Positions 10,866 to 59,808 of a stretch of 64,000 nt of DNA are shown piece after piece. The stretch comes from a virus, in the IMG/VR virus record IMGVR_UViG_3300042890_005556. One strand, written 5' to 3'. Position 1 is the stretch's first letter; the number at the start of each line of letters is the position of its first letter. The position numbers and the translations under genes were made by a program. The notes beneath the pieces were generated by a model. It saw only the letters and a program-made list of their open reading frames with translations. It did not search any database and was not told where the DNA came from.

Positions 10866-12155
10866 TCAGGGAGTGAGACCGTGTGATAGGCAGACTAGTT
10901 TTATTTGGTCTCTAAAGTCATTTACTGATCTTATGGTGATTCCAAAGAATTCGGCCATGTGGTTGATTTTTGGGTCACCAGCTCCAAATCTGTCGCTGAA
11001 TGATTCATATACTTCACCGTTTTGGATCAGTATATCGTAAACTTGTTGACAAAGTCCCTTTGGCAGGGATTTCCGTATGGTAGACAAAGCATCTTCGGCT
11101 TCTATTACTGAAACGTGATCTTCCAAGATCATTTTCTGGCCCTCAACAAAGCGGTGGCCTATCTGGTCTAGAGTAGAACCACCTTCGTCCTCGGTGACAC
11201 TTAGTTGATTGTCCAGAACAGTTACGTGTTCTGGGCGAATCACTACTGCTTCAAGCTCATCCTGACAAGAAGACTCATCCGTGATTTGGATAGATATCGT
11301 ATTGTTATCGATACCTAATAATACGCCATGTCTTATTGCTTTTTCTTTGATTTTAGAAAATTCAATAGAGAATTCTGGTGGCGTTTGCATTCCTAAAATA
11401 TGGAACGCATAGTGACTATCTTCCTTGGCACAATTGTAATCAATGTTCATCTGGGAGCATGTACTTGCTAGCTCTTCGGAGATGATGTAGTCTGGGCGAC
11501 CGCTGATCAATTGTGGTACCTTTTTATGTTCTTGGCGTTTGTTTTCTTTTAAGTGTTGTCTGAAGTAATTCCAGGCGAATTCACCAAAGAATTTCTTGAG
11601 CTGCTTTGGGTCGTTGACGATTGCTTCTGGGTTCTCATATTTTCTCTCGCCAGGGATTGGCTGTATTGGCGATATGATTTTTGATCCTGAGTACCCTTCT
11701 GCTAGAAGCAAGCGGTAGTCGTCGTAGTCAATGAATGTTTTTTCGGTGGTGAGGTTGCCTTTTTCGGCTATTTTGACTTTATTACAGCTAGGGCAACATA
11801 TGAGTTGCTGGTCTATGCTCTTGGCTTTACCTCTTTTTGTCAGATATTGTGTCTGCTGGCAACTTTCGCATTTAAATGTGTAGTCGCGGTGGTAAAAGAG
11901 GTTTATCACTCCGCGCCATATTGCTATCTGATATTCTAGCTCGGCTGCTGTAGAGTCGTCGGCGTAGTCTCCGCCAATTGTCACCCTGAATTGTTTCATT
12001 ATCTCTGCTCTATGTCTTACCATTTCTTTATGATTTGACACATATGTCACCATGTCATGCACTTTTTGTCGTTCGTCTTCTGAGATTTGCGACATGGTGA
12101 TGTTTACCAATGAGCCTCTGAGATATAGCTTTGGCATTTGACGAACAATCGGCAT
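10866..12155 (-). CDS. Sigma70-like factor with inserted Cys4 zinc module
   Basis: ELEYQIAIWRG (region 2.2-like), CESC...CPSC insert, FAWNYFRQ (2.3/2.4-like), C-terminal HTH NHMAEFFGITIRSV; GGAGG RBS. Confidence 0.55.
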   Translation of the reverse strand: MPIVRQMPKLYLRGSLVNITMSQISEDERQKVHDMVTYVSNHKEMVRHRAEIMKQFRVTIGGDYADDSTAAELEYQIAIWRGVINLFYHRDYTFKCESCQQTQYLTKRGKAKSIDQQLICCPSCNKVKIAEKGNLTTEKTFIDYDDYRLLLAEGYSGSKIISPIQPIPGERKYENPEAIVNDPKQLKKFFGEFAWNYFRQHLKENKRQEHKKVPQLISGRPDYIISEELASTCSQMNIDYNCAKEDSHYAFHILGMQTPPEFSIEFSKIKEKAIRHGVLLGIDNNTISIQITDESSCQDELEAVVIRPEHVTVLDNQLSVTEDEGGSTLDQIGHRFVEGQKMILEDHVSVIEAEDALSTIRKSLPKGLCQQVYDILIQNGEVYESFSDRFGAGDPKINHMAEFFGITIRSVNDFRDQIKLVCLSHGLTP

Positions 12156-12230
12156 TTGTTACCTCCATGGTTGTGTGATTACCACTGCCGTATTTTAGAA
12201 CAGACAATCCTTTTTGGCAGGAGATCCGCC

Positions 12231-12992
12231 ATGGCTCAGTATTGCGACACGAAGAAACTCGAAAAGGTCTGGTTTAACTGGCTTCTATCCAAATCAGCAC
12301 CCACGCTGGAGCCATACAGGAAAGCGGGTGTGTTGTGGACTAAAGCCATAGGTCTCGTCGATGTGAAGGGTGAGGTGATTGTCAAAGGTGGTAAGACCTT
12401 TAAAAGTCCTACACATCCTATCAGATCGCACTGTATCTTGTCAAGATATCCGTTCTTCTTTACCACTTTTAATGGTAAGCCACAAGAACTTGCGTCCCAA
12501 ATACATTATAACGAAGATGGTGATTATACGACAACCCCCATTGCACTTTCAGAGATAGAAATAGTAAAAACCAAGCCGGAAATAAAAGACATAGAACAAA
12601 TACTACTAAAAGATGGCTACATCCTAGATGCAGAAACAGGAAAAAGCTGGGAGTCCATGTTAATAGACATCAATAAAATGTGCCTCGGAATAGCATCTAA
12701 ATTCCATCAAAAAACAGCAGAAGAATTGAATGATTTAGCTAACGAAGCATTATTGCAAGTAGCTAACAAATTATCTACGGATAGGCTGGTATATACTCCC
12801 GGAAGGGCACCAGTATTCAATTTATTAACCACCACTATACATCGATGCATGTTTTCAATTATGAATAAAAGGAAAAATCAAAGAGAAGGGCTTAACAGAT
12901 TACTGCAGGACGCACAATCTGGGTCATTACCTCAAACTAACAGAAGCCTGAGACTCCAAACATTCACGACGAGAAAACATGAAAATCGTTAG
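12231..12992 (+). CDS. T4 gp55-like late sigma factor
   Basis: QYCDTKKL N-terminus and KMCLGIASKF, DLANEALLQ, APVFNLLTTTIHRC..S..NKRK parallel gp55 region-2 motifs; AGGAG RBS before ATG 12231. Confidence 0.6.
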   Translation: MAQYCDTKKLEKVWFNWLLSKSAPTLEPYRKAGVLWTKAIGLVDVKGEVIVKGGKTFKSPTHPIRSHCILSRYPFFFTTFNGKPQELASQIHYNEDGDYTTTPIALSEIEIVKTKPEIKDIEQILLKDGYILDAETGKSWESMLIDINKMCLGIASKFHQKTAEELNDLANEALLQVANKLSTDRLVYTPGRAPVFNLLTTTIHRCMFSIMNKRKNQREGLNRLLQDAQSGSLPQTNRSLRLQTFTTRKHENR

Positions 12993-13920
12993 TAACAAAC
13001 ACATTGTGCCAGCAGTAACAAAAAAACCAATAGACAATATTAAAATAGTTGTTAGTCCCCATAATAAAACTATAAGCACACTAAATGCTTATAATCAATC
13101 AGCCCATATGAAAGTAATCCCAGCACAAATAGCACCGCAGATCAAAAACAAAGCAGTCATTGATAAAAGCCTAGTAAAAAGAACTCAAAACCCAAATAAA
13201 CCAAAACCACCAGCATCGGTAACTTACGCTTCCGGCGAAGCACCAATCGAAAGCATACCAAAAATATACGGTATAAAAGACATAGGTAAAGGTAAGACAT
13301 TAGTAGTCATAGCAAACGGCCCAAGTATAAACGAAGTTGAATTGGAGAGGCTAAAAGACAAGCCAGGCATCGACACTCTATCAATAAACAGACCGGACCC
13401 ACGGGTCTGGCCAACCACATATTGGTCATTTTACGACCAATCACAGCTTGTGCGACACGAAGACCTGTATAATTATTATGAAGGCATAACCTTTCTAAGC
13501 ACAGCCATCAAGAGAGACAAGGCCAGAAGCATAAAGTTTAAAAATTTTGGCAAAAAGCAATTTAGCAGAGACTTAACAAAGGGATTATGTATAGGACGCA
13601 CAAGCTGCTATGCTGCTATGCAACTTGCTTTATGGATGGATTACGATAAGATATTCTTTTTTGGGGTTGATATGCACCCAGATGGTATTGACGGCAAGCT
13701 CCATTTCTACGGGACAAATCCCGACGTAGACCCTGATATTAGGAAAAAACGATTTAACTCAGAAGCAGAATACTTCGAATTTGCCGCAGATAACATGGAA
13801 TACCAAGAGAGAAAGAGATTTCACTTTTGTTCGTCTTACCTGACATGGCCCTTTAAATCGCGTTTCAATTACTTAGATCACAAGACTGCTATAGACGTGA
13901 TTTTAGGGTCAATGCTATGA
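12979..13920 (+). CDS. DUF115/Maf/GT42-like Rossmann protein with basic Pro-rich N-terminus
   Basis: VIANGPS, SINR and TS.YAAMQLA.WM.Y.KI.FFGVD motifs. Confidence 0.7.
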   Translation: MKIVSNKHIVPAVTKKPIDNIKIVVSPHNKTISTLNAYNQSAHMKVIPAQIAPQIKNKAVIDKSLVKRTQNPNKPKPPASVTYASGEAPIESIPKIYGIKDIGKGKTLVVIANGPSINEVELERLKDKPGIDTLSINRPDPRVWPTTYWSFYDQSQLVRHEDLYNYYEGITFLSTAIKRDKARSIKFKNFGKKQFSRDLTKGLCIGRTSCYAAMQLALWMDYDKIFFFGVDMHPDGIDGKLHFYGTNPDVDPDIRKKRFNSEAEYFEFAADNMEYQERKRFHFCSSYLTWPFKSRFNYLDHKTAIDVILGSML

Positions 13921-13944: not shown

Positions 13945-14316
13945 ATGAGATACTACATAGCATCTAGTTTAGACAATGTTGCCAATGTTCGTAACGCCAT
14001 TATGAGGCTGACCGAAGCTGGGTTTAGTGTCACACATGATTGGACAAGACATGGCAGAATCACAGACCCATCACAGTATCAAGCCATTGGCGAAGCAGAG
14101 TACCAAGGCGTGATTGATGCAGATTTCATCGTGTTTTTTATGCCGACTAGGTATGGAAGCCATGTTGAATTCGGTATAGCACTAGCCTCTAACAAACCGA
14201 TTTATATGGTCACAAACGGCGTGGAATTTGAAGAAAAAACATTCTATCATCTACCATCCGTACATAGATACAGCGATTTAAATGAACTATTGCGCGAATG
14301 GGGAATAGACAAATGA
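13945..14316 (+). CDS. Nucleoside 2-deoxyribosyltransferase / dNMP N-glycosidase family protein
   Basis: YIASS (catalytic Tyr), E..GV..AD and GSHVEFG.A.A..KP (catalytic Glu). Alternative start at 13930. Confidence 0.8.
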   Translation: MRYYIASSLDNVANVRNAIMRLTEAGFSVTHDWTRHGRITDPSQYQAIGEAEYQGVIDADFIVFFMPTRYGSHVEFGIALASNKPIYMVTNGVEFEEKTFYHLPSVHRYSDLNELLREWGIDK

Positions 14317-15017
14317 GTGGAAGCGTATCAACTAAGCTCGAATTAGACGTAATGCAAGTCAATGAATTGCTTGAAGCAAGCGAGCTAATGTCCCAACATA
14401 CGCTACCAGCCATGGTCATACATTCTGGCTTGGCCCCAGACGCTTACGCAGCACGGATGAGAGTCAGAGGCAGGTACAAGATAATCATCCCTATTGATTG
14501 GCCAAAAGGCGAAAATTTTTCTAACTTGAAATTCAGGGGACTAAGCAAGCAAGCACTGGAAGCTGATGGGTTCGAGATAATGGTCACGCCAGGTAAGACC
14601 CTTCTAGATACAAAAAATGAGATCAACGTTCTGACTGAATTCATCAGAAACTTCCTGGGGGAATATGTGGAGGTTCGGTTTGTAATAGGCAATACTATTA
14701 AAACCGACGAGGAAATTGAAGTAATATGCAATGCCTTGTTAGGTATGAGAAACCCCACATTGTTGCGTAGCGATACTATCTTGAAAGTACAGCAAAATGT
14801 CATCAGCGCAGAGTCGCATCTAGCCTTTGTTAATAAGCTACGCGGCTTTGGTCTTCCCACACCTATAAAGCTATCGGGGAACATGAACAACCTGAAATCT
14901 ATCGCTTCAGCGCCAGCAGTTTTCAGGTATGCTGTCAATGTAACACAAGCCAAGAATATTATTCGAGAGATCTTGCAGCAGCCCAGTGAATTGAAGGAAA
15001 TCCTGTCCGACGTTTGA
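14313..15017 (+). CDS. DeoC (deoxyribose-phosphate aldolase)-like TIM barrel, divergent
   Basis: IDWPKG (cf. IGFPLG), ADGFEIMV, VRFVI, LRSDT (cf. IKTSTG), IKLSGN (cf. VKASGG); ATGA overlap with the upstream gene. Confidence 0.6.
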   Translation: MSGSVSTKLELDVMQVNELLEASELMSQHTLPAMVIHSGLAPDAYAARMRVRGRYKIIIPIDWPKGENFSNLKFRGLSKQALEADGFEIMVTPGKTLLDTKNEINVLTEFIRNFLGEYVEVRFVIGNTIKTDEEIEVICNALLGMRNPTLLRSDTILKVQQNVISAESHLAFVNKLRGFGLPTPIKLSGNMNNLKSIASAPAVFRYAVNVTQAKNIIREILQQPSELKEILSDV

Positions 15018-15027
15018 GAATGACAAT

Positions 15028-15417
15028 ATGATACACGATCATCTAATGGAAGCAATCAGGCAAGATGCCGACCTATTGACTAAATCCGATGCGTGGCTCG
15101 AAGAAGAGAAGAATTACTTCACAGAGCAGATGCGCAAATCCATAGAAGAGCTAAAACCCATCCTCTTAGCTATAGCTATAAAACAAAAATTGCAGCAGCA
15201 GAACATGGTGCCTAGGCAGAAGTTCATAAGAGGCAGCACAGGCCAGATAGAGAATGTTGTGATTGACTTCTGTAAGCTACCAGAAGCACTGAGAGATATG
15301 CTCAATAACGGCAGAGATACCTTAGATCAGTTGATAGCAGCTGGCAATATTGCCACATGGCAGATAGACGGGTATGACGTTAATACCTGCCTCCAAACGG
15401 CACCGAAAGGGATATAA
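15028..15417 (+). CDS. Hypothetical protein, translationally coupled to purZ
   Basis: TAATG stop/start overlap at 15415-15419. Confidence 0.7.
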   Translation: MIHDHLMEAIRQDADLLTKSDAWLEEEKNYFTEQMRKSIEELKPILLAIAIKQKLQQQNMVPRQKFIRGSTGQIENVVIDFCKLPEALRDMLNNGRDTLDQLIAAGNIATWQIDGYDVNTCLQTAPKGI

Positions 15418-16517
15418 TGCAAAACGGCAAGCTCAATATAGTCACAGACGGACAGCACGGTAGCACAGGCAAGGGTCTAATCAACGCATATCTAGCCGAT
15501 AAACACCGACCAGAAATACTCAGCACGACCAATATGGCCAACGCTGGCCACACCGCAGTCAACGAAAACGGCGAACCGTTCATAGCAAAAGCATTACCGT
15601 CATCAGCGGTCCTAAACAAATGGCGAGAGGGCTATAAACCGACAGTATTCGTAGGAGCTTCATCTGCTTTTGATCTGCAACAGCTACTAAAAGAATGGGA
15701 AGAATGCGACAAGCCATTCACACTAATCCATCAAAGAGCGGGTGTCATTACACAAGAGCAAAAAGAAAGAGAATCCGGAGCATCAGGCACAAAGCACGTT
15801 GCTAGCACCATGCAAGGATGTGGAGCATTTCTAGCAGATAAAGTCATGCGAAGAACAGATTTAAAACTCGCTAGAGATTATGAAGAGCTTCAACAATTCA
15901 TGGCCATCAAAGAAGCACATACATGGCTAAAGGCACAGCTCGAAAGCTACGGTACAATTCTCCATGAAGGAAGCCAAGGATTCAGCTTGGATATAAGCCA
16001 CGGTAGTCACTATCCAGAGTGTACAAGCCGCAGCACCACTGCTATTCAAAACCTTGCTGACCTTGGTCTTAACCACAAGCAAGTTGGTGATGTGTACGTG
16101 GTTTTCCGGCCATACCCGATCAGAGTCGGCAATGTCTATGAAAATGGGGTAGAAGTAGGCAACAGTGGTGGTTGTTATGGCGACAACCAAGAGACTACTT
16201 GGGAAGCAATAGCCGATGCTGCAGGTGCACCGCCAGAGATTAAAGCCAAGGAGCTTACAACTGTCACAAAGCGACTTCGAAGGGTCTTCACGTTTAGCAT
16301 GCAGCAAATCACCGAAGCTGCTGCAGCTAACGGTGCATCATATCTTGCGCTGAATTTTGCTAACTATATTGACTGGACTTGCTATGGCACCAACGACAAG
16401 GCAAAATTGTCAAGCAAGATTTGGGATTTCATTCATTCAGTACAAGAGCAAACAGGCGTCAAGGTGGGGCTTGTTGGTACGGGTCCTCAGATAAACCACG
16501 TAATTGACCTAAGATGA
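15417..16517 (+). CDS. purZ: PurZ, N6-succino-2-amino-2'-deoxyadenylate synthase (adenylosuccinate synthetase family)
   Basis: DGQHGSTGKG (Ser where PurA has the GDEGKG Asp), NMANAGHT, EGSQGFSL, YP.CTSR, RPYPIRVG, ELTTVTKRLRRVFTFS, and LNFANY in place of PurA's TKLD. Confidence 0.88.
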   Translation: MQNGKLNIVTDGQHGSTGKGLINAYLADKHRPEILSTTNMANAGHTAVNENGEPFIAKALPSSAVLNKWREGYKPTVFVGASSAFDLQQLLKEWEECDKPFTLIHQRAGVITQEQKERESGASGTKHVASTMQGCGAFLADKVMRRTDLKLARDYEELQQFMAIKEAHTWLKAQLESYGTILHEGSQGFSLDISHGSHYPECTSRSTTAIQNLADLGLNHKQVGDVYVVFRPYPIRVGNVYENGVEVGNSGGCYGDNQETTWEAIADAAGAPPEIKAKELTTVTKRLRRVFTFSMQQITEAAAANGASYLALNFANYIDWTCYGTNDKAKLSSKIWDFIHSVQEQTGVKVGLVGTGPQINHVIDLR

Positions 16518-17293
16518 TCAACCTATTCAAAGTCGCAATTTACACAGACGAAGCGGGGTCTACCCTCGCTTCGTCTAAGAGTATTATATCAGAATTAAAT
16601 ATTCCAAATGTCATTTTTAGAAACGTAGACAATAGGAATATTCTAAAATATGACGAAACTCGAATAAAGGCTGTCCTCAAAGAGTTCGAGGATTTTACCG
16701 TAGCTGGTCTGTCGACAGATATCAGAATAGATGATATGTTGTCAGATGATCAGATTTTCGATTTACGGAAGAAGATTTACCTTATTAAACCAGTATTTGT
16801 CAGATTCGGGTGGGCTGGAGAGAAATACTCTACGGAATTTATTGCTAGAATAATAGATATGAGTATAGAGAGCAATTTTATACCGGTTATTGAGTATGAG
16901 CATACGCATTTTAATTCTCCAAAAATCATAAAGGCACAGGACTGGGTCAACCTTTTGTCATTATCGAAGCGATTGAGAGTGAATTTTGATCCTGTTCAGT
17001 ATCTTATGCGGGTAAGAACTGATCCTATAGAGACGGTTTATGTTCCGCTTAGGAATCAAGTGAGCGTGATCGATGTAAGAGATTATAAGATTGGCGTTGG
17101 GGCTAAGACGATTGGTTACGGGTCTATTGATTGGGCTGCGTTGTTAAAGAGACTATATTCCGATAAATATAACGGTTGGTTGGCTATTAAGCCGTCTCTG
17201 GGTATCATGCATGGTGATACTCTTGGTAGAGAGATGGTTTTTTCCCATGCTTTCAGCAATTTCAAAGAAACATTGGAGGAAGCGTGTCAATAA
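16514..17293 (+). CDS. Xylose-isomerase/AP-endonuclease-2-like TIM barrel, divergent
   Basis: YTDEAG, R.V...NI, VNFDP, IDVRD and G.G.IDW..LL..L....YNGWLAI.P pattern; ATGA overlap with purZ. Confidence 0.7.
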   Translation: MINLFKVAIYTDEAGSTLASSKSIISELNIPNVIFRNVDNRNILKYDETRIKAVLKEFEDFTVAGLSTDIRIDDMLSDDQIFDLRKKIYLIKPVFVRFGWAGEKYSTEFIARIIDMSIESNFIPVIEYEHTHFNSPKIIKAQDWVNLLSLSKRLRVNFDPVQYLMRVRTDPIETVYVPLRNQVSVIDVRDYKIGVGAKTIGYGSIDWAALLKRLYSDKYNGWLAIKPSLGIMHGDTLGREMVFSHAFSNFKETLEEACQ

Positions 17294-17499
17294 ATCTTAA
17301 TGAGACGACAGCTGCTATTAGAAAAGCTGGAGCCGTCAATGTTCGCGTTGTCCCTATGAAGGGGCAAACAATCGATGGTGAGCACCAAATTGAGATTCAG
17401 AACGTGCCAGGGACTTGGCAGACTATTTTGACTGGTATTAAAAAACCTATGGCTGAGAGCATCGTGCGTGACGCCACAAACAGGGTATTGTTAGGATAA
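17284..17499 (+). CDS. Small hypothetical protein
   Basis: GGAGG RBS, GTG start, operon position. Confidence 0.65.
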   Translation: MSINLNETTAAIRKAGAVNVRVVPMKGQTIDGEHQIEIQNVPGTWQTILTGIKKPMAESIVRDATNRVLLG

Positions 17500-17503
17500 C
17501 CTA

Positions 17504-17926
17504 ATGGCTGGCTCAGACGTATTCGAAGTCGCACGCTACAAAATCGGAGATGTGGCGTGGTGGGTGAATTTAACAGCCAAGGATGACCCACAAGAAGTCC
17601 CTGAAAAAGACGAATGGATGAAAAAGCATCATCCTAAGGTCTTATTCGAACGCGGTTTATACAAGTCCCTGTGGAAGACGACTGCTGCTTTGCCTAAATT
17701 AGAGAAGACGGATTTTCTCAGTATAATGCATATATTGACGTGTGAGATGAAAATAAGCGAATTCATTGTCTCAAGTATCGCAAGAAGCAACGATACCGGC
17801 GAATTCTTTTATTCTAACTTAAACACCGAATGGCTTCCAGAGTCCAGCATGTTTGACACTAAAGAGGCAGCTGCGAAGGAAAGAAAAAGGATCATAGGGT
17901 TGGTGAAAAAATGGTGTGATTCTTAA
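17504..17926 (+). CDS. Hypothetical protein
   Basis: 140-aa ORF with AGGA RBS. Confidence 0.7.
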   Translation: MAGSDVFEVARYKIGDVAWWVNLTAKDDPQEVPEKDEWMKKHHPKVLFERGLYKSLWKTTAALPKLEKTDFLSIMHILTCEMKISEFIVSSIARSNDTGEFFYSNLNTEWLPESSMFDTKEAAAKERKRIIGLVKKWCDS

Positions 17927-17963: not shown

Positions 17964-20900
17964 ATGGCAACAGATCCGTTTGCGAATATAGGTTTTAGGG
18001 AAAACTTCTCCCAAGCTTACTACACAGAAATAATTATAGCTAGGAATAAAAAAAGCATAAGATTTGCTTCTTCCACTCCTACAGTAACAAACAGCTACCG
18101 CCAACTGATGGGTGGTAATTTATACAGAGTAGCGGAGTTACTAAGTATAACAGGACCAAAACAGCCCGTAGCCATAGAAAATAAACTACAATATAAAAAA
18201 GACCAGCCATACTCACTCTATGATCAAGGCCAAATAAGCGACGAATTCAGAATACAAAACGTCGACCCTACCCTCTCGTTAGAGAACAGAGAAAGCTATT
18301 GGGCAAGAGTGAGTAGCCCATTAGGGAGAGAGTGGGCTGCCTACTACGCTGGAACAGATGCTAAAATAGGCTACCTCGCAAACTTCATAGACAGAAACTT
18401 AGATGACTTCACAGGCACTAATTTTGCAGGATTTGTATCTGGAACACTTAATAATGATAACGATAAGCCCAACCTATATGACACTGTTAAGATAGGAAAC
18501 ATATTCGGCTCCACAGTTCAAGGTAGCCAAACTGCATCTGTGTCTGTTGAGCCAGGCATGTACAAGAGCTTCATCTCGTGCAAAGTCACACAAGACACGA
18601 GATATTTTGACCCTACAGGCGCAGAAATAATCCAAACTGCTGAATCAGGTGATTTATTCGCCGACGAGTTCGTGTTAAACTTTTATATATTCCCAGGTTA
18701 TCACACATTTTATTATGGCTCTTGGAAGATAACAATCGAGCCGACTAATACGACAGGAACGCATAGGGTATTCATCCAGCATGCCAGATACTATACCTCT
18801 GCTGAATACAATATGCAGCCAATTGTGAGGAAATTTAGTGCAGACTTTGATTGGGATGGGACTTTAAGCGAGTTTAATCTTATAACTATTAAGTACCTGT
18901 TCACTCCAAGACCTCAGGGGAGTGCGTCGACTGGCACAATTAACATTGGTAATTCTACTAGTAAAGTTAGTCTATTTGTAAATGCTGTTCCTGTCTTCGC
19001 AAGTGGTAGTGATTCGATATGGCCCCCATCTTATCCAAAAGTCTACCGTGGTTCAAGCGGTGCGGGATTGCCTAGTTATACACAGAAACCATATATTGAC
19101 CTAAAGATGGCCCCAGATAACACGCCTGTCTTCATAGTATGGGATAATGCAGTACCTTTCGGGATCACAAAAAGCGAGTTTGCATTTATTCTTATAACTG
19201 ATAAGTTAGTGGATCTTAAAGGTCTTTATACTCACCTCATTAGATTCGAAAGGATAATGCCTAATCTCACAATTGAGACGACCCCTAACCCAGTTGTTCC
19301 TCCAACACCCCCAGTAGGCGGTATTACTTCGAAATTTTACAACAGGGCTACTTATAGTCTTGCCCCAGCGGTCTTGATGGAATTAAACAAGATACTCTTA
19401 GATTTCATGTTGTCCCAGCCAAATATTAGGATCTCTAGCGGGCCACTTGAATCAGATCCAATTCTTAATAGAATGCTAGCCGCCGCAAGCACCACCAAAA
19501 AATATTCATCAGCGATAGAATCTGACAAGAACGTTTTAGATCTCTTAAGAGAGCCAGTCTTGGTAGTAGATGATACGAATTCACTTCTACCATATATCTT
19601 GCTAGAATATGGACTGCCCAATGACAACGTCGGGCAACTACGAGTTAAAATAACAGAAATAAAATCACCAAATGTAATCGATGAAGTATCATCAGAAATT
19701 GAGCTACAGGGCTACGCAGAGTATATTATTAAAACCATTACCACAGACAGCTGGACAGCTGGCACGGTGACGTTGTCTACGAATTTCAGATTTTATGTCG
19801 ATGATAGTGGAATGTACGAGCCAAAATTAGATCCGTATATCGTCAACAATCCTAATCAGCTGACTCTTAATGAGTTTGGACAAGTATATGTTGAGAGTAT
19901 GCGCGTTACTTGGGCTTTTCCAAGGGACGTGAACAGTCCTTTTGTTATTCCAGATAGCTTTTTTACTAGGTATAACAGGGTGGTGGATGTAGTAACCCAG
20001 GAAGTTGAAATAGCGAAGCTCTTTGATACGGAGAGAGACTTATTACCAAATGGGTTGCCGGTCGATCTAAATATGTCTAATAAGCCGGGCACGACCCCTC
20101 CAATACCACCTAACCCTGGAACAACTCCAACACTATATTATAATCGAGCTGAATGGAGTGTACAGCCTGCTAAGGAAGCGGAAATAGAAGAAGTCCTAAA
20201 ACAATTCATGATTAGTAATCAAGTGATAACTAGCGCGGATTCGCGTTTTAGAAATATATTGAATACCGCTTTGTTGACTGATTATAGAGTGATCAGAACA
20301 TTCGAAATGTCATTAGGGTTTGGAGAACAGATTCTTGATGTAGTTGATACACCTCTTGCTACTAGTAGTAATGAAGTTGAAATATTTTATGCACCAACTG
20401 ATTCAACTTTTGTTGATCATTCAAAAACTAGCGGGGTGCAATTACGCGCCAGAATACCAATAAATGACCCTAATAGAAATAATTCTCAAATTGACCTATC
20501 TAGCACAGCTAAATTTACCTTCGACATACCAGCAAATTTCGACAGTCCATCTGGTGATCTGTCCGAATATGGTGCTGGGACCATTGAAATATTCGTAGAT
20601 TTTGTTTTGAGGCAGGCAGATGTTGCGAGACCGGATATCGGCAGTGCTAACCCTTATATCGTTGGGAATAACAACGAATTTATACTTAGCTCATCTTACA
20701 GATTGGGAGCGTTACGCGCTACTATTACTGCTGATATCGGTTTAGGTACTGATTTCATTGACGAGTTTGATATTAATTTAGAACCAATAAAACTCGATCA
20801 GTTCGGGGCTGGAACTTTAGTGGACATAACGCCTTTCATTACTGGTGGTGTTCCAGTTTCCATAAATATGTCAAATGCTCCAGGCACAGTCGGAATTGGT

Positions 20901-23900
20901 GTGCCAGGTGGTACACCATTACCGCCATCTGGTGGGTCATTATCACCATCCAAGAATTATACCGCAACATTCACCCTGGCAGACCAGCCATTTAAAATAT
21001 TCGAGATAGACAATTTAAAAGGGCTGTTAAATTTTTACAGTTTCCAAGACACTCTAAACTACACATTATATGATCTTCTTCTAACCCCATATTCTCAGAA
21101 AGTACCCATTTCGAGATACGCGTCTGACGTTTTCAAGCTAGCCCTAATCGAACAGGGTAAGATACCTGGACACCCATCAGATCAGACTGCAGGATTTTTA
21201 AAAGCGTATACTGCCTATTTTAATGACCAGGATTGTGTGCTACCGGAAGGCAGTCCGCTAGACCCCTCTTGCCAGGCATTGACCATTGAATATATCATAG
21301 CACCTAAAGAGACGAATAAGGTATTAACATTAGGCACAAATCTCCTGAAAATGGGCATGGTTATTAATCTAGGGTGTAATGGTGGTGCCAATTGCGTTGT
21401 TGTTAGCGGCAAACAGATTCCTAGAGTGAATGGTGTGCCTACGGCCCAGTTAAGTTATGATTTTACCATGGAGATGATAGTAACAGAAGACACATCAGGT
21501 GTGACGCCACCGACGAGTCCAAGTATAATCGTGACATATAATCTTTCAGGGCCCATAGCGCTCTGGGGTTTTTTAATAGGACAATACTCTCTTATTAATG
21601 TTTCTAGATACACTGGTGGTGCATACAATAAAGTCATAGCGTATGATGAAGCGACTATGAAATCAGGCACAAATTTTCTAGTAAAAGCTTTCGGCACCGA
21701 TTCACCACTATATGAAGCCGGTAACATAGCGCCAATTAAATTGTCTGCTAGAGGGAAGAGGCTTTGGGGTTCCGATCCGGACGATTTTACTAATGACTAC
21801 ACACAAATCGACTTTTTTGTGACAGCTTACATAGACACAAGATTTACAAAAACACTAACTGGCTCGTTAATTAGTGACCTAGATGCTCCCAATACAACAC
21901 GAGCAGCAATAGTTTATGTGATAGAGCCTGTAACCGTACCATTTCCAAGATTCGACGGCACGATAGTTCCCTCTAAAAAATTACCAACAGTTACCTATAC
22001 TGATTACACTAATGTATTAATGACCAAGCGTTTTCCCTCTGACGGCGGAGACGGCGGAGACGGCGGAGACGGCGGAGATACGACGGTCAAGAAGTACAAC
22101 GGTAAATGGAATTTGGGTCCAGATTTCATTAGAGCTATAGAAAACACATACATCGAATTTCTGCAAGTACCCACATTTAATTGGCGACTTGACAATGTGG
22201 CGTCAAAGGGCTTAGGAAGCTATGATAAGCTTTTGTGGGAATTAGTAAGTGGAGGTGTCAATCCAATCGTCAATAACTGGCAGACTGCCGGATACCCAAC
22301 TGGAGTTGGTCTGCAAAGACCAATAGACTCTAGATCCGTCCAATATTGGATGGAAGACGTATTAAAATACAACGGCGTCGGAACCGGACCGACCGGAGCA
22401 CCAGTCACACTAGCTTACTCATCCAGCTTCCAAGGATCTAATTTAAAATTAACAGTTTATATGAATATAGCAGTTAGAGACATAAGATTAGAAGCTGAAA
22501 AGTCAACTAGTGTAACATTGGACATCTCTAACATAATAGGCGAGTTGTCTGAAGGTGGAATAAATAAAACCTATCTGTTTGCGAATAGAAGTACTTCATT
22601 TACCATATTAGTAGACGTATACGAAGCGATGCAAACATTCAGTGCTCCGCAAGAAATGATGCTCGCACAGACAGTTCCCGACAGTTACATCTGGCAGCCA
22701 CCCAAATACATTATAGTAAACAGTGACAGCCTCAAATACAATGATGGCCTAAACGACGTATACTACTTCAGAGACGGCTACCAAACCGCTCTAAGACAGA
22801 CCTACTCATTCGTTGGCACAAGAACATCACAAAACGACGTAATAGCAACATATAGGCACGGCGATGCCAGCTCATACGACCCAGAAACTACAAACTACGA
22901 CGTAGTGGTTGGCGGCTTCGACTTGGTATACCATAAAGGCACACCCAACACTCTAACTTTACTACCGATCGAAATAATAGAGTCTAAAACCAAAAAGAAA
23001 TTTGTGTGCTTTGGCAGCATCAGAGAAGTAGGAAATATATTAAACGCCTCAATAAAATCAAACGTTGTGATGACATTCATAACAGATAACGGATCGACAT
23101 CCGACACAGACGGAGCATACTGGGTATACGACAATACCTGGAAAGAGTGGTCACATACAATTCCGATCAATACCGGCGATGAGCTAAACTTATACTGCTA
23201 CAGCTGTCTCACTAATCAGGTTGGTACGCTAGAAACCAACATCAATATAATCACCAAATTCAACGTTAAACCAACTCCCAATAACCCACCGCCATCAGTA
23301 GATCCCACCGAAATATTCCCAGCAGAATTTTCTTACGACCAATTAATCCAAAAAGTACCGGCACTACCAGTTGTATACCCCCCAGGCTTCCCAAATCCAT
23401 CAGTATATCGGTTTGAATACCCTAAAACGATGGCAGTAAAGGCCAAAAGCTCAACAGATACATATGAGTTCTTTCTAGAATCTATTGACAGCACACAACG
23501 CATTGCTACTTATAAGCTGTATGAATTCGTGAACAACGAACTGACGGTAGGTGGTTTTACTGTAGAATACACACCACACGTATCATTCAAGCTAAGTAAA
23601 GTAGACGTGTACTCAGCAGATTTAGATAGAGATTTTGAATGCTTTGGAGTAATACACATAATCTATGACAATGACGGTGCATTATTGTCGGCTGATACGT
23701 GGGAAATAATACCCACATTTGAAGACCCTAATGATTTCGCTAACTGGTATTTGACTGTCGTACAAGACCCGTTGACTGGTGGTAACCATTTTAACACTTA
23801 TTGCAACGATGGCACAAATTTTAAATGCTCAGCAAATAACTTGAAATTCGTGATGCGTATAGACGCGAATTTTAAGCATTATGCTCCAGAACCTCCAGCA

Positions 23901-26900
23901 ATCATTGTCGCTCCACCCGTATCAGGTCCGCCAATACCATTGCCCATATACAGCACCGGTTATAACGTTGCTTCAGACAGGCAGATTGCATTCATTGGTG
24001 AGCCTGATAGTAACTGGAAAATCACCAGTTTTATTACGGGTCCAGAAACTGCTCCTACACATTATTGGAAACTAAATAATGGCTTAACTGATAGTGTGGG
24101 TGACTTACCATTTGTAGCACATCCAGCTATGAGAGTTGAACAGGGACAAAGCCGACCGCGATTCGCACGCATCGCAGATTTCACCTACGGGGTGGGTGCT
24201 GTTTGGTCGAATATACAGACGCAAACGACTCCTGAGAATGCTATTTATCCTAATAATCCTGGAGTAGTCAGTGGCAGTACTACTATAGGAAAAGGCATAG
24301 AACACGGTTTATATGCTTATGTGGCTTCACAGACCTCAAACCGAATTTTGGATTCAAATGCTTGGACGATAACTGGATGGCTAAAAATGCCTATTAAACC
24401 ATATGTCGCCAATATAGACAATGCTGGCGGCATATTAGAAGAAATGGTATTTAGTATTTCCCCATTCACACCTTTGCCACTTCAGCCCCCATCAGTAACC
24501 AGTTCATATGTCTTTGGTCCTGAACTCATTGTCGGTAGTGCCCCTAGGATATCAGTTTATGTGATCTACGCTTTTAGAGACTCAACACCTGCTGAGGTGT
24601 ATGGTGAAAGATTCTTTAAGAAAGCCGGCCATATTTATGTTTATTTTAAATCAACCCGCACCAGCGAACCGACTTACGCAGGAAAAGAGACTGGGCTGAA
24701 TGCAGTATTAGTAGATGAGGCTGGTGACATCATCTATAGGGATTTATTAACAGGAGACATAGCGTCTGAAGAGGGTACTACATCAAGAGCCTGTAATTTC
24801 CTTGAAATACCTGGACCAGATCTAATAAGAGCGAATGTCTGGTCATTTATATCAATAAAAAAACAAGAAGCATTTGATGACAGGCTGATAATAAGTATAA
24901 ATGGCCGAGATTACACAGCGATATTTCAGTCTGCCATCGTCACAGATGAGCTGTTAAAGAAAGTTAATTTCATCCAGGCAATGGCCCCGCTAGACGATTT
25001 AAGAACATACGACTCAGAGCTCTCAGACTTAGAATTAAAACTGATATCGCGAGTCGGTAGCGCAGAAGGCGGGGTAGTACCACGAGAATACAGCCCCGGT
25101 GGAGTGGTATCAGGGGTCATATCAAGCCAAGTTTTTGCTTACGACCACTTTAACCCTTCAGAAGAGATCCAGCCATACTGGTGGCCAGCCGGATATACCT
25201 CTGGTAGCACCATCGTGCCAGATCGCACAAACCTCTACCAACAATACAATGCAAGATGGGTGTCGCCACCGCCTAAGCTGGGCATTGACGCATCACCAGT
25301 AGCAAAATCCTTCCATTACGCCACCGAATTTGATCTTACAGGTATTACTCTCAATACAGTCAAGATATCGTTTCTATGCTCTGGTGACGATAGAATAGTT
25401 GATATAATTGTTAACGGCACGAGCACAGGCTATAACAACATCTCAGAGATCGGCGGGCTGCCAGCTACTAATACGACAGCATATGACAACTTAAGGTACA
25501 GGAACCTATGGGACGTGAAGCTACCGACCGGTAGTGGCCATCTCTTCGTTCAAACAATTAATACGATCGATATAGTGGTAGAAAACCAAGCTATCACAGA
25601 TCTTTCAGTGGCTACTAACCCAACTGGGTTATACGTGTACGTTTACGAGAAGACCGGTGTTCCATTACCCATACTGGAAGACCCAAGAGCAATCATTTTA
25701 GACATAGTCGATACTGGCCACAATAAGATATTGAATCAACCAATACCTATAGGTTCGTCAGATAGCAATTGGGTGATAGAAAAAGTAGAAAGATCAGAAA
25801 CCGCTCCTTCTCACTATTGGAAGTTTAATAATAGCCTAAATGATCTTGCTCCAGCTGTTGGCTCAACACCATTACCATTTGCGCAATACCTGGTACAGTC
25901 TACTTTTAAAGCTGGTGTGGTAGTCGGTAATGCTGGAAATCCGCAAAACACCGGGGTAGTTCAGAACGCAGTATTTCCTTTTATTCCTGGTTCACCAACT
26001 TCTGAATATGGCAAGCACATCCTTGTTATATCTGAAGGAGGTACAAATAGTAAGCTCATTAATTCATCAGTAGGCTGGACGATTACCGGCTGGATTAAAA
26101 TTCCATTATACGATGGATCAATACCGTCACTCGCGGAATTAACAACAATATCTGCTATTTCTCTTGACGTCTTTGCTGCTAACACGCCTACCATGAAGTT
26201 TAAGTTTTGTTACTTTGGTGCTGGCAATAGAAAAACAGGAGCTCTCTATTTAGACTTTACTTATGGCGAATTGGATAGTAACAGAGCTATGACAATACCT
26301 GACCAATCCACCAACTTCATCGAGATAATACCGAATCAAGGGGCGTTCTCTCAGAACGAATGGGTTTTCTTTTCAATACGCAGAACTCCACGGACTACCG
26401 CTCCTTCTGGAGCTATATCTGATGGCACAATAATATTAACAATCAACGGTATTGATTACACTATTAAAGAACCATATATCCCAGGAGCCAGCTCGACTTT
26501 CGACACTATGAGCTGGATTGATTTTAGTTGCCCGGCAGATGATCTAAGAATATACGGAAATAAGGTACTGTCTAACTCTGAACTTAAATTCATTTCCAAA
26601 TACGATTTCACATCAATTATACCCGGTGAAAATGACCACGCCACTGCGGAAGGTGTACCGAGAGAATACTTGAACACATACATTACCGCGCCTTCCCCCG
26701 TCTTCGCCTACGATTACGTAAACCAATACAGCCCAGCACAACCATACTGGTGGCCACAAGCAGTTCCCAACCAAGCCTCACTCTACGGAGAATACAAAGC
26801 ACGATGGGTATCGCCACCATCAACCACAGGCATTAACATAAGCAGATTAGAAAACACAGGATTCCACTACTATAAAACAACATTCAACCTAGCGAATATC

Positions 26901-29900
26901 GACCTAGAAACAGTAAAAATATCATTCCTCTGCTCTGGTGACGACCAAATATCCGACATAATAGTCAACGGAAAAAGCACAGGCTACAACAATCTATCGC
27001 AAGTAGGAGGGCTGCCAGGGAGCGACTCAGCATACCAAAATTCAAGATTCCGAAACCTATGGGATGTAAAACTGCCAGTAGGAAAAACACACCTTTACGT
27101 TCAAACAATCAACACGCTCACCATAGTAGTACAGAATAAAAACCTAGAAGACACAATAGCAATATCAAATCCAACAGGATTATACGTGCACTTCTACGAG
27201 AAAAAAGGAATCCCAGTCCCTGCACAGCCAATAATCGACCCAATATTATTCACAATCAGCCAACAACTATATAAAGACCCGACAGTAATACCAATAGACC
27301 CAGAACCAATAGTCTTGCCCAAGCCAGCACCACGCCCAGTAGACTTAACAAGATCCAGTAAATGTCTGGAACTAGCAGCCTACAGCTACTTCGCGCTTGG
27401 ACCAGTCAACACCACCAAATTAACCACATTTAACAGAGCGTCAAACATATGGGCATTCGCAACGACAAATAAGCCCAACGCCTTTGGACAAAATAGAAAC
27501 AGATATGGATTCACTACGTCAGATGCAGTATGGGTAAGGCCAACCACAGAGCCAAATACCTGCAAATACCAGCTAAATTGCAGAGACACACAATCAGCAA
27601 CGATGGCTAAAAACAACGTAATATACCGCACAATCACAGCGCCAGCTGATACCTGGATCACAATAGGCTGGAGACAAGAAACCCCACTGCCCGGCTTCAG
27701 ACTAGCCGGTGATACGGTGGGAATAAAGGTAGCCACAGTCATAAAATCAGCGGTAGGTCCTGACCACATAAAAGTGACCACAGACACGCAGACCGTATTC
27801 GGAATGCCAACAAAGCGTGTAATACCACCATGCTACACTGCGGTCGCTGAATACAATAAGACAATTGTCAGTATAGAAATCATAATCTATTCTACAGGCA
27901 TAGTTTACGAAAACTTCATAGACGACATAGTCATCGAATACGGACCAGGGTACTGCGACGAAATAAATTGCATTGATACATTCACCGGCACTGACGCTAT
28001 CCTGAAATATACCGGAATGTCTCGTGAATTGGTATCAAAAGACAGCACTGAAGCTAAACTTATCCAGTACGGCCCGACAGAACTTAACTTTGGATCACGC
28101 TACTACATTAACGCTGGTGTCACTGCATCCCAGACTATAGAGCTTGGCGGATTCCTAAATAAAAACGCCAAAGTGAGCATATCAATATCGGGGTACAGCG
28201 CTACTAAAACAAACGGCGTAACCGTAAGATTAGAGACATTTGATGAAAACATGCAACCACTCGAATTATTCACTGAAAACCTAGGAGTAACGAATCCTGG
28301 CAGCTTCTACACGACAGATACATTCGACAATGCAAGCCAAGTAAACCTGTTAACCACCAGCAAATTCGTGCTGGGACAAGCTGCCAGAATTATAAAAGTG
28401 CTGGTCACGTCACAGCTCAATAAGTTCTACCTTGGCTTCATTGATGTCTGTACAGACCAAGACGTGACATTTATAAAAACACCGCCAACACTTGATTGCA
28501 AAGGCAATGTTAATAAGCTTCGAGTGCTGCTGAATGTAAATGGTGTTCCACGTGAAGAAGTGAACATCTTCCAAGCTTTCTGCCGATACACGGTACTGAC
28601 CAACACTACCTACAGAACACAGCAAATCGTTGAAACCACTTCGACTGCTGATGGAAGAACCGGCACAGCGCTTCCAACTAAATGCGATGATGCAGCACTC
28701 TGCAATTATTGGAAGCAACAGGGTGTGAATGACACGGTGGATCAGTTGATTCTGACAAGGACCATCACAGATAACGACGCTGCTGTCGACATATCAAGAA
28801 TAGCATCTGGCTCTTATAACCTTCTGACAGGTATTGATAACTGGATATGGGCATCACCACTTAATAGAGGTTTTGGTCCAGACCAGTATATTTTGCAATT
28901 CCCAGATACACAGAATAAAGTCGCAGAAGACAATTATGTAGAATCACTTGAAATATTCCTATCTGCCAATAGAGCCCAAGTGAGCAACGCAACATGCTTG
29001 CCAGCCATAGGTTTAGCATACAAATTCGCAGATTTCATCACAGTTAGCTCTACTTCGGCAATTCTACCAATTAGCATACCAAAATTGAATGTAGAGAATC
29101 CAACCACTCTACGATTCGACAGAGTATCACTGAATAAGATTGGAAGCATAACGACAGCTAACTATGTTCTTGCGAGAAGAACATGTAGTGATAAATTCGT
29201 CTTAACCGGAGGATTCACAGTAGAGCATCATCCAGAAAATGGCGAGTATTTCGTCATCAAAGCATACGACTGGTCTAAGTCACCAAACACTCTGCTAGGA
29301 GTAGTTGACAGCTGCCGTAACATCCTTGATTACAGCACGCTCTTCACCTTAGGATCACTAACGACAGCCAATAATCTTGCTGCGAATGACACCACCAGGA
29401 CCGCATTCTTCTTTAAACCAACTAATAACGCTTATTCCAGCACTGGCCCGAATAACACACAATTCTTTGAGTTGTTGGTCCCACAGTCCTCACAATTCGA
29501 CATATTCTCAGCCAACAACAATACTAACAGTGTGCCAGTTACATTAGTAATTGATAAAGCTAATGTCCAGAGCTATGAGATATCTGCTACATTTACTTGG
29601 GACAATACTTCTGGTGAGATAATAACAGATCTTACGGGAGAAAGCGATTGCAAAGACCCGGCAGACGCGATATCAGTAACAATCGAATACATCAACGCTG
29701 TTGGTGCAAAGAAGAGGTTCACCAGAGAAATACCTTTAACAGAATTGAATACCATAGAAGAGACAAATACAGAAGACTGGAACGCGCTACGGGCATTCGG
29801 TAATGGGCTTAAAGGTGATTACGCGACATGGGCATCCACAAAGTTTGAGCTCGATAAGCCGTATGGAGGCGGGTTGGATCAATGTCTTCCACCGTTCATA

Positions 29901-38567: not shown

Positions 38568-39377
38568 ATGGGCAAACTGGTACAGCCAAAAGTCTACCAC
38601 GTTGGGTACACAGAAGTAGACACAGATACCATACTAGAATATCTTAAAGATAGCGGGAATCTAGACTTCTATGAAAGCATCAAAGAAGCCAAAGCGATTG
38701 GAATAAGTAACGCAGAAGTACTTTGCAGCCTCTACGCTAAACTCTGTTATAAGAGCCTTACATTAGGGCAAAACCAAAACATAACAAGAGTGAGAGACAT
38801 CAAAGACAACCTCATAGGTTGTTTTCATACAGGTCACGGAAGCATATTCGAGCATATTAACTTTAATTTTATAATCACAGATTGTAGCAGAATATTCACA
38901 CACGAATTGATAAGACATAGGCCAGGTATGGCTTATTCACAAAATAGCGGGCGATATATTAGAATAGACGAAATTGATATAGTATTTGATCCAATCTTAG
39001 AGCCAGTAAAAGACGACGTAGAAGAAATAATCGAATATCTAGAACACAAGTACAGAATAATGGAGCAAAAGCTAGACTTGAATAATATCAAGGACTTTGC
39101 TACTAAAAAAGAAATGACATCCGCATTACGAAGACTTGCACCAAATGGTCAATCTAACGAAATAGGGGTTACAGCAAACCTCAGATCCCTCCGCCATATT
39201 ATCATGCTTAGGACCAGCAGGCATGCTGAATGGGAGATAAGAGTAATATTCGAACAGATCTATAACATAATGAAGAGCAAATACCCGTTGATGTTTGCTG
39301 ACGCGAAAGAAGAGATCGTTAAGGGAATCATAGAAGTCACCGGAATGAGGATGCAGCCTTATGAAAATAGTATTTGA
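38568..39377 (+). CDS. thyX: FAD-dependent thymidylate synthase
   Basis: GH.SIFEH, R.FTHELIRHR, SQ.SGRY and NLR..RH...LR...HAEWEIR. Confidence 0.95.
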   Translation: MGKLVQPKVYHVGYTEVDTDTILEYLKDSGNLDFYESIKEAKAIGISNAEVLCSLYAKLCYKSLTLGQNQNITRVRDIKDNLIGCFHTGHGSIFEHINFNFIITDCSRIFTHELIRHRPGMAYSQNSGRYIRIDEIDIVFDPILEPVKDDVEEIIEYLEHKYRIMEQKLDLNNIKDFATKKEMTSALRRLAPNGQSNEIGVTANLRSLRHIIMLRTSRHAEWEIRVIFEQIYNIMKSKYPLMFADAKEEIVKGIIEVTGMRMQPYENSI

Positions 39378-39909
39378 ACGCCTACCAAGAAACAACAACC
39401 CAATACCGAGCTACGCGACGCAAGGGAGCGCAGCTTTTGATCTAAGCACATGCCTTAGAAGATCCTGCAGACAATTTCTGGCAGGAAGGGGTACTATCAA
39501 TTTCAGATGTACTACAGACGGCGGAAGGCGTGATAGCGATGAAGAAGGCAACTTAAGAGAGATAGGAAATTGTGATATCCCGGTGTTAAGGATTAACCCA
39601 GGTGAAATAATTCTAATACCGACTGGATTCAAGACCTCTTTCGTAAACGCCGTATTGAAGATATTTGTGAGATCTTCAATCAGCTTGGATGGTCTTCAGC
39701 TAGCCAATAATGTCGGTATCATAGATTCAGACTATAGGGGTGAATTGTTCTTAGCATTTAAGAATACCAGTGATAAAGTGAAAAACATATCTGATAACTA
39801 CAGGATGGCACAAGGTATTCTTGAACCGCTTGAACAGTGCATCATAGAAGAAGGTACCGTCGACATTACTGTCAGAGGTGCTGGTGGGTTTGGTTCCACT
39901 AACGAATAA
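39361..39909 (+). CDS. dut: Trimeric dUTPase with an insertion
   Basis: AAFDL, RSS, GIIDSDYRGE, RMAQ and RGAGGFGST motifs. Confidence 0.92.
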   Translation: MKIVFERLPRNNNPIPSYATQGSAAFDLSTCLRRSCRQFLAGRGTINFRCTTDGGRRDSDEEGNLREIGNCDIPVLRINPGEIILIPTGFKTSFVNAVLKIFVRSSISLDGLQLANNVGIIDSDYRGELFLAFKNTSDKVKNISDNYRMAQGILEPLEQCIIEEGTVDITVRGAGGFGSTNE

Positions 39910-54266: not shown

Positions 54267-54399
54267 AATATAAGAAACCAATTATCGTGATGATATCTGT
54301 CATTGTATTACAGATACTATTCGGGTGGGACCCGAAGTTCACTTTAATCAACATAATTTGGTTATTGCTGTAGTAAAAATACTTATAGGAGATAAAAAC

Positions 54400-55032
54400 A
54401 TGAGACTGTCAGTAATATCAGAAGTAGCTGACCCAAGATCTACAAATATGGATGGAATAGAAATAAGTAAACATGATCCAGACATAACTTATTCTTTTAC
54501 AGACCCAAGATCACCAGACTTACTTTATAGTGTCATATTTGAAGCAGCAGAAATTGGGTACCAAAATTGCCCGCATTACAATGATATTAGACAAGTCACA
54601 AACGAAAACTCATATAAGTTAGACCTAACAGTAGCAAAAGACGGTTCACCAAACTGGTCGTTCGATAAAACCGGTAGAGGGAATTTTGCTTTTGTATACG
54701 GTAAGCTAATGACATGCGTTATTGACTTCTTAATAACAAGAGATGTGGAAGCACCATTCATAGTATTTTCTGGTTTCAGTAAAGACATGGAACTCATTTA
54801 TAAGAGATTAATGGATCGGTTAAATAACGAATACCCAGATTATACATATTACCCATATAGTGATGGCCTTTACATTTCATCTAGAGCTATCGAAAAGATA
54901 GAAGATGAGGACATCAAAGATGAAATCTTTGAGGCTATAAGTTCCCATTCTAGGGAAAGAGATGAAAGACACAAAATGATCAGAAAAGAGAAACAAGAAA
55001 AAAACCCGCGCAGTCGTGGCAACGTTTTATAA
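54400..55032 (+). CDS. Paralog family member 2, class A leader
   Basis: MRLSVISEVADP; KTGRGNFAFVYGKLMTCVIDF; FSGFSKDME. Confidence 0.85.
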   Translation: MRLSVISEVADPRSTNMDGIEISKHDPDITYSFTDPRSPDLLYSVIFEAAEIGYQNCPHYNDIRQVTNENSYKLDLTVAKDGSPNWSFDKTGRGNFAFVYGKLMTCVIDFLITRDVEAPFIVFSGFSKDMELIYKRLMDRLNNEYPDYTYYPYSDGLYISSRAIEKIEDEDIKDEIFEAISSHSRERDERHKMIRKEKQEKNPRSRGNVL

Positions 55033-55041
55033 GGGAAAATC

Positions 55042-55674: not shown

Positions 55675-55705
55675 AAATATACAGTGAAAACTCTGGGAGA
55701 CATTC

Positions 55706-56683: not shown

Positions 56684-56704
56684 AACACCAAACGGAGCCC
56701 TCTC

Positions 56705-57855: not shown

Positions 57856-57895
57856 TCGGGTAAATTTATAAAGTAACCAATTTTTGGAGATACCA

Positions 57896-59095: not shown

Positions 59096-59147
59096 AACCC
59101 TTTTGTAATAGTTTAGTAGAGCCAGTTATATCTACGATATATTTATA

Positions 59148-59783: not shown

Positions 59784-59808
59784 GGCTAGCTCCCCTTTAT
59801 GGTATATT

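Follow-up and report, generated by a model that had tools for sequence, protein, structure and literature searches.

Known routes to Z-DNA and a related locus in a jumbo phage

Phages described as carrying Z-DNA, in which 2-aminoadenine (Z) takes the place of adenine, follow a published split between those that combine the synthetase PurZ with DatZ and MazZ and those that combine PurZ0 with DutZ and DmtZ, most of them being 40-80 kb in size with a family A polymerase. The NDT-family enzyme DmtZ, present in 85 of 98 PurZ0 phages, hydrolyzes deoxyadenosine monophosphate (dAMP) and transfers the deoxyribose 5-phosphate to Z (NAR 2026, PMC12884076), and a dA-preferring NDT enzyme, NDT-M2, has been described from dZ-enriched viromes (bioRxiv 10.1101/2025.10.22.683976). 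Here, we analyzed a run of five genes that includes a purZ-type gene in the virus record IMGVR_UViG_3300042890_005556, of which a stretch of 64,000 nucleotides (the window) was studied, with all features lying on its + strand (Table 1). Sequencing runs of about 18 freshwater studies contain DNA of this uncultured lake phage. Our preferred reading, to which we assign a probability of about 0.4, is that the locus belongs to a Z-precursor pathway in which an ATP-type PurZ is accompanied by an NDT glycosidase in place of DatZ, convergent to the DutZ/DmtZ route. An earlier, sequence-only reading of the window had proposed a similar scheme; the PurZ-type site, the intact NDT site, the conserved neighborhood, and the lack of datZ and dpoZ in complete relatives support it, while its DeoC chemistry is unlikely and its dedicated operon doubtful. 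Its "undescribed" pathway of adenine removal also falls, as deglycosylation of dAMP or base exchange by NDT-family enzymes is already published in the two studies cited above. What is new here is the combination and the jumbo-phage setting only, the adenine-removal chemistry being already known.

Comparison with these systems reveals a mixture of features. Unlike phiVC8 and S-2L, the window enzyme has Arg at the position of E. coli PurA Arg303, scores below the family cut-off, and has no adjacent datZ, mazZ, or dpoZ, and its lineage has a genome about nine times larger and a DnaE replicase. The DutZ/DmtZ route of Wayne and Ghobes (PMC12884076) is resembled in the NDT gene near purZ, the lack of datZ, the catalytic Tyr and Glu residues, a Trp-Thr motif common to both enzymes, and a dUTPase elsewhere in the genome. 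In contrast to that route, the window has an ATP-type PurZ rather than PurZ0, another NDT subfamily, no DpoZ, and an unlinked dUTPase that lies 22 kb off beside ThyX and carries no distinguishing feature.

A PurZ-type synthetase

The best profile for the synthetase was NF038379, whose cut-off was missed (234 against 300 bits; phiVC8 and Ghobes score 397 and 346 bits). Its residues were aligned with those of the phiVC8, S-2L, Wayne, and Ghobes enzymes, E. coli PurA, and 121 relatives, revealing Ser16 at the PurA Asp13 position (Ser in 120/121 relatives), Ile235 and Thr281 (both in 121/121), and His45 among its PurZ-type residues, together with an ATP-type pocket, Asn313-Phe314-x-Asn316-Tyr317, that follows the PurZ pattern Asn-Phe-x-Asn/Gln-Tyr. 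The Ser/Ile/Thr and Asn-Phe-x-Asn-Tyr positions, which have been tied in the literature to the use of deoxyguanosine monophosphate (dGMP) and ATP, match Ser14, Ile234, and Thr262 and the ATP-binding Asn294-Phe295-x-Asn297-Tyr298 of the PurZ enzymes of phiVC8 (PDB 6FM1, 6FKO) and S-2L (7ODX), at 33% identity. From these residues, we infer that the synthetase would be an ATP-type PurZ using dGMP, aspartate, and ATP.

The placement of the enzyme in a tree is consistent with this assignment. In this tree, from which archaeal PurA was absent and whose branches are long, the jumbo-phage clade groups with phiVC8 and S-2L to the exclusion of PurZ0 (support 95/86), and the clade is thus bracketed by confirmed Z phages. 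Moreover, searching by the DeoC-like gene returned five loci with other PurZ lineages in the purZ slot between the third open reading frame (ORF3) and the TIM-barrel gene. Two other lineages are represented, which carry Lys or Leu where PurA has Arg303, and three distinct PurZ lineages in total occupy the same slot in otherwise syntenic phages. Such in-place replacement points to a shared function and lessens the weight of the objection that Arg286 of the window enzyme poses (see below).

More than 120 close relatives of this PurZ are known and the lineage is common; no cellular copy was found in a scan of genome contigs that used single-protein patterns of low reach. The closest cultured-phage protein is the PurZ-like enzyme of Bacillus phage vB_BpsS-140 (40%), which is likewise below the PurZ cut-off, has Lys at the Arg303 position and Ala for Thr262, and comes from a phage without an NDT-profile match. 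A limited literature search found no report on a jumbo-phage PurZ or on Z in vB_BpsS-140 DNA. Among related genomes (G numbers) and loci (L numbers), three (G012-G014; L212:1483-2688, L213, L214) have an additional PurA-like gene of bacterial type next to one that is vWA-like, with PurZ also present and the PurA Asp retained in two of the three. At three other loci (L068:5995-7601, L084:2869-6507, L087:6001-8256), the purZ frames are broken or greatly lengthened, probably by intein or intron insertions.

An NDT-family glycosidase

The product of the NDT gene reached 27 bits against PF05014, whose cut-off is 28.8. Its AlphaFold2 (AF2) model, with a predicted local distance difference test (pLDDT) score of 95, matches NDTs and DNPH1 at Z-scores of 14-15 and ranks them above BcmB and MilB. 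Tyr4, Glu52, His73, and the nucleophile Glu75 are invariant in the phage NDT family; the NDT family amounts to 5,745 proteins at an E-value of 0.001. The NDT fold is certain and the Tyr/acid/Glu glycosidase site is intact. Tyr4 suggests a deoxy substrate. The fold and the nucleophile Glu are shared with DNPH1 and with the CMP glycosidases BcmB, BlsM, and MilB; unlike the latter, the window protein has Tyr rather than Phe at the sugar-selecting position and no MilB cytosine-binding Pro-Phe-Arg motif. The N-terminal motif of the MilB group, Phe-led and ending in Pro-Phe-x, is accordingly missing, with Tyr4 invariant and no Pro-Phe. Like the window NDT, NDT-M2 is a PF05014 enzyme, found in association with Z phages, but its substrates are nucleosides and it is accompanied by DatZ and PolA. 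A further member of the same family as the window NDT (P0257, Logan ERR3697022) is fused to MazG, comparable to the DmtZ-DutZ fusion, and has a 385-aa gene upstream.

Absence of known Z helpers from complete relatives

Claims of absence beyond the window rest on complete relatives with a PurZ identity of 55-59%. Their genomes, of 354-408 kb and 34-51% G+C, encode a small PolA-like protein and a piece that we take, from our own reading of its sequence, to be DnaE-like. In the window, as the sequence-only reading had claimed, no relative of DatZ or MazZ was found by phmmer with the phiVC8 and S-2L references. No DatZ was detected by HD_3 in G001, G012, and G013 or by a YfbR-like profile in G007-G010; phmmer and small profiles built from phiVC8 and S-2L DatZ and MazZ found neither in G001 and G007-G010, and three DpoZ sequences matched nothing in these same genomes. 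Of the canonical purZ-datZ-mazZ/DUF550-dpoZ cluster, datZ and dpoZ were not found in the complete relatives, and a MazG above the cut-off is present in only one of them, G009. A DUF5664 search gave no match anywhere, controls included, and therefore carries no information. G001 has one HD gene, which was considered as a DatZ and rejected, being YhaM/HDIG-like instead.

The window also encodes a dUTPase, a member of the family that includes DutZ, which the sequence-only reading did not mention, and all complete relatives carry dUTPases without a diagnostic DutZ feature. DutZ has a short loop that is not found in the window dUTPase; this loop does not serve as a DutZ marker, since phiCbK, an ordinary phage, has it too. 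A DutZ role for this enzyme, as the source of dAMP and dGMP, is possible but unsupported.

Another jumbo phage of the same PurZ clade, G011, has no such block of neighboring genes; it encodes a full-length PolA in addition to a YfbR-like HD protein. This HD protein (L091:1384-2121) has Tyr-Ser-Ser at DatZ Trp20-Ile22, a pattern reported in dZ-enriched contigs. A conserved family A polymerase domain of 380-440 amino acids (aa), with its catalytic Asp residues kept, occurs in G001 (G001:254863-256044, L045) and G007-G010; its steric-gate Glu is replaced by Asp and its motif B is altered. This domain is not DpoZ, and it might play a part in filling primers or choosing bases. The only host clue is a Planctomycete-type pilin-like N-terminus in one gene of two relatives, which would suggest a Planctomycete-like host.

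Restriction-site avoidance

As an indirect test for Z, strong avoidance of six-base palindromes was counted in five complete genomes of the lineage and compared with three ordinary phages of GC-rich hosts and four confirmed Z phages, for which counts are low. GC-only sites were avoided alike in the three groups (18/37, 12/24, and 16/27, respectively). For sites with one A per strand, the lineage strongly avoided 21/118, against 32/67 in the ordinary phages and 7/84 in the Z phages, and for sites with two A, the counts were 1/120, 10/65, and 5/46. The Fisher p for the one-A class was 4e-5 against the ordinary phages and 0.06 against the Z phages, with genomes and sites non-independent and hosts differing. 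One-A site avoidance is nearer to that of Z phages than to that of ordinary phages, which is a weak lean towards Z; the one-A sites that are avoided are no argument against Z, since several are also among those avoided by the Z phage Wayne. G011 displays no six-base palindrome avoidance whatsoever, and in the 408-kb genome G007 (L092-L111), GCGC is seen 2 times against 486 expected.

Weighing the proposed pathway against alternatives

A number of observations speak against a Z-precursor pathway in which PurZ and the NDT glycosidase cooperate. The first concern the synthetase: Arg286 occupies the E. coli PurA Arg303 position in 121/121 relatives, where characterized PurZ and PurZ0 enzymes have Lys or Leu; Arg303 of PurA touches the 2'-OH of the substrate, and Arg286 could permit a ribonucleotide substrate. 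Furthermore, no enzyme that would supply dAMP or dGMP was identified. Milder points are the N6/N4 or Dam-type methyltransferases of relatives and the strong avoidance of GGATCC, though Z at least partly blocks BamHI. Together with the score under the PurZ cut-off, the lack of known helper genes, and the low G+C, the Arg residue and these adenine-type methyltransferases would favor a PurZ sister branch without a Z genome, acting on GMP or another ribonucleotide or making a minor modified purine while the DNA keeps its adenine. We consider this improbable, given that every base- and donor-specificity residue is PurZ-type, that a loop insertion after Val237, said to crowd C2' in PurZ, occurs in the synthetase, and that PurZ genes of the Lys or Leu type substitute for it in place.

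The second set concerns the glycosidase. Its identification as DmtZ was rejected by residues, profile, and context: DmtZ Asn77 is Glu52 in the NDT, Pro57 has no equivalent, and DmtZ Asp12 is Asp10 in the window copy and variable across the family, while hhalign of the NDT family against DmtZ reached a probability of just 36% and nothing in Wayne or Ghobes matched the profile of the family. The top PDB sequence matches are BcmB, BlsM, and MilB, CMP glycosidases that share the Gly-x-His-x-Glu motif with the NDT.

The third set comes from synteny, examined within 6 kb of purZ at 36 loci, some of them near duplicates. The DeoC-like gene was found at 23/36, the WaaZ-like gene at 22/36, the sigma-like and 71-aa genes at 20/36 each, NDT and the TIM gene at 17/36 each, and ORF3 at 16/36; 13/36 loci had none of these neighbors. 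Beyond the 17 NDT loci, an NDT of another family is present at three, and at one the NDT lies about 12 kb away. As a point in favor of the pathway, an NDT lies before the DeoC-like gene in 7/7 complete block genomes, in two of them from a different NDT family. The complete genomes G009 and G010 have purZ 170-190 kb from NDT and the DeoC-like gene, with the sigma, transferase, NDT, DeoC-like, and 71-aa genes together and ORF3 and the TIM gene absent; the block occurs without NDT at L063/L065, and a complete 100-kb phage with the same PurZ has no NDT-profile match. These patterns make the five genes part of a lineage core block, and the detachment of purZ in two complete genomes and the 13 loci without neighbors render a dedicated Z operon doubtful. 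Every block genome also has purZ, and because no block genome without it was found, co-occurrence is inseparable from shared ancestry. Two phages without the block beside purZ carry a small gene 3' of purZ (L066:7095-7415, L069:7589-7879), which we presume to resemble DUF6378.

These patterns bring in a serious, though still doubtful, alternative, in which PurZ makes Z nucleotides while the NDT, DeoC-like, and TIM genes merely sit beside it in the core block and have no part in this. The NDT would then trim a pyrimidine or damaged nucleotide or clear CMP from the adjacent WaaZ-like transferase, with adenine excluded by some other unrecognized enzyme or only partly. Such an arrangement would fit the transferase, NDT, and DeoC-like genes remaining together when purZ departs, the sigma-like and small flanking genes being conserved as well as the five, and the matches to CMP glycosidases. 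Furthermore, in sister phages, the block acquires genes resembling dCMP deaminase or dUTPase, and members of this PurZ clade are found in the company of other helpers (the YfbR-like HD gene of G011 and a dUTPase beside the L085 enzyme). Against this, the invariant Tyr4, as opposed to the Phe-led MilB motif, argues against ribo-CMP, NDTs and DNPH1 outrank BcmB and MilB by fold, and the complete block genomes yielded no other enzyme that would remove dATP.

Gene layout and the remaining members of the block

The five-ORF layout matches gene calls made on other assemblies. As the sequence-only reading had reported, the co-oriented ORFs and their three stop/start overlaps at 14313 (ATGA), 15417 (TAATG), and 16514 (ATGA) are real, and its gene labels are valid as folds (NDT, DERA-like, PurZ-like, and TIM barrel) according to profile scores and AF2 models. 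The proposed five-gene operon is, however, not a bounded unit: the same-strand run begins upstream of NDT with a sigma-like gene followed by the WaaZ/MptE-like gene and extends through the 140-aa gene downstream, the 71-aa gene overlapping the TIM gene by 10 nt, and these flanking genes are conserved to the same degree as the five. A promoter and terminator scan gave a signal near chance level. Relative to a phage with a 96% identical PurZ, the ratio of nonsynonymous to synonymous substitution (dN/dS) was 0.04 for ORF2, ORF3, and purZ, 0.06 for the TIM gene, and 0.18 for NDT, the last partly due to an altered C-terminus; all five ORFs evolve under purifying selection.

Table 1. Features of the window and loci with a replaced purZ
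Feature	Position	Strand	Size or remark
NDT-superfamily (d)NMP N-glycosidase/transferase (predicted)	13945..14316	+	123 aa
DERA (DeoC)-fold TIM barrel, ORF2, probable non-aldolase	14313..15017	+	234 aa
ORF3, conserved protein without assigned function	15028..15417	+	129 aa; directly 5' of purZ in most block loci
PurZ-type adenylosuccinate-synthetase paralogue	15417..16517	+	366 aa
Xylose-isomerase-like (AP_endonuc_2) TIM barrel, altered metal site	16514..17293	+	259 aa
WaaZ/MptE-like putative glycosyltransferase	12979..13920	+	same block, upstream of NDT
Two conserved downstream core-block genes	17284..17926 (17284-17499, 17504-17926)	+	71 aa and 140 aa
dUTPase	39361..39909	+	beside ThyX (38568-39377)
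Loci with another PurZ lineage in the purZ slot	L194:9478-10662, L207:9569-10804, L209, L210, L208:9223-10494

The DeoC-like ORF2 had no Pfam match, DeoC included; profile searches of Pfam and the PDB were empty, hhalign of its family against E. coli DeoC gave nothing, and an Atlas search returned nothing for ORF2 or ORF3. Likeness to DERA was seen by fold alone: the six best structural matches of its model (pLDDT 91) are all DeoC, at Z-scores of 19-21 with the next at 15 and identities of 10-16%. Compared with three true DeoC proteins, Lys201 is retained as Lys186 and an acid is kept at Asp102 (Glu88), whereas Lys167 and Lys137 are replaced by Arg152 and Arg122; the four residues are invariant in 47 homologues, Arg152 standing at the Schiff-base position in 47/47. 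Since DERA does not tolerate the loss of Lys167, classic aldol cleavage is unlikely, and ORF2 is a probable non-aldolase of DERA fold, for which binding of a phosphorylated sugar is possible. Of the two roles that had been suggested for it, disposal of the released sugar phosphate is therefore unlikely, whereas binding may still occur. The complete scheme, a dedicated five-gene Z operon whose DeoC-like protein handles deoxyribose 5-phosphate, is in our view very improbable, even though the NDT and DERA-fold genes overlap, are adjacent in nearly all loci, and are under purifying selection, with Lys186 and Glu88 kept. Besides the lost lysine, the DeoC-like gene is retained at loci where no NDT adjoins it (L063, L065) and in genomes where purZ is distant (G009, G010), and several relatives lack ORF3 and the TIM gene.

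The second TIM-barrel gene reached 29.8 bits against PF01261 (cut-off 31.1), and its fast-evolving product is 17-32% identical to its relatives. In its metal site, what we take to be the His ligand position is Asp and the last Glu is Lys in the window.

The WaaZ/MptE-like protein has a weak likeness to the CstII sialyltransferase; its gene is kept in all block loci whose contig reaches it except L064 and is linked to the DeoC-like gene more tightly than purZ is. Two divergent conserved sigma-factor-like genes (10866-12992), one with a zinc-ribbon insert, head the block. Elsewhere in the window, a 4,599-aa ORF with repeated domains (17964-31763), very variable in length among relatives, is probably a tail or adhesion protein, and at least six paralogous genes of 210-325 aa, several sharing one short leader, lie at 54325-60486.

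Proposed pathway and implications

In the preferred pathway, PurZ would couple aspartate to dGMP with ATP, as its specificity residues and tree position suggest, and host PurB and kinases, known to do so in other Z phages, would presumably complete dZTP. As a guess, the phage dUTPase or an unrecognized pyrophosphohydrolase might provide dAMP and dGMP. The NDT would free the base from a deoxynucleoside monophosphate via Glu75, with Tyr4 favoring deoxyribose, a chemistry that is well supported; that the released base is adenine, lowering the adenine deoxynucleotide pool, is again a guess. Without a DpoZ, the phage DnaE may then copy DNA from the skewed pool, like the unselective polymerase of S-2L. 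The DeoC-fold and second TIM proteins, which are conserved but have lost classic catalytic residues, would be dispensable for this scheme. A bolder version, which we regard as unlikely, would comprise a widespread lineage of freshwater jumbo phages of 350-410 kb with DnaE and fully Z-substituted genomes, having an ATP-type PurZ, an independently recruited NDT acting as a dAMP glycosidase, no DatZ, MazZ, or DpoZ, and a non-catalytic DERA-fold protein as a sensor or scaffold for deoxyribose phosphate.

If true, this bolder version would add a third set of helpers for Z-DNA, and Z genomes would then be known from phages several times the size of those in the literature surveyed. For the preferred pathway, the pairing of an ATP-type PurZ and a dedicated NDT in jumbo phages with DnaE would no longer fit the published PurZ0/PurZ helper split; NDT enzymes would have been recruited a second time, and a family C replicase would be able to copy hundreds of kilobases of Z-DNA.

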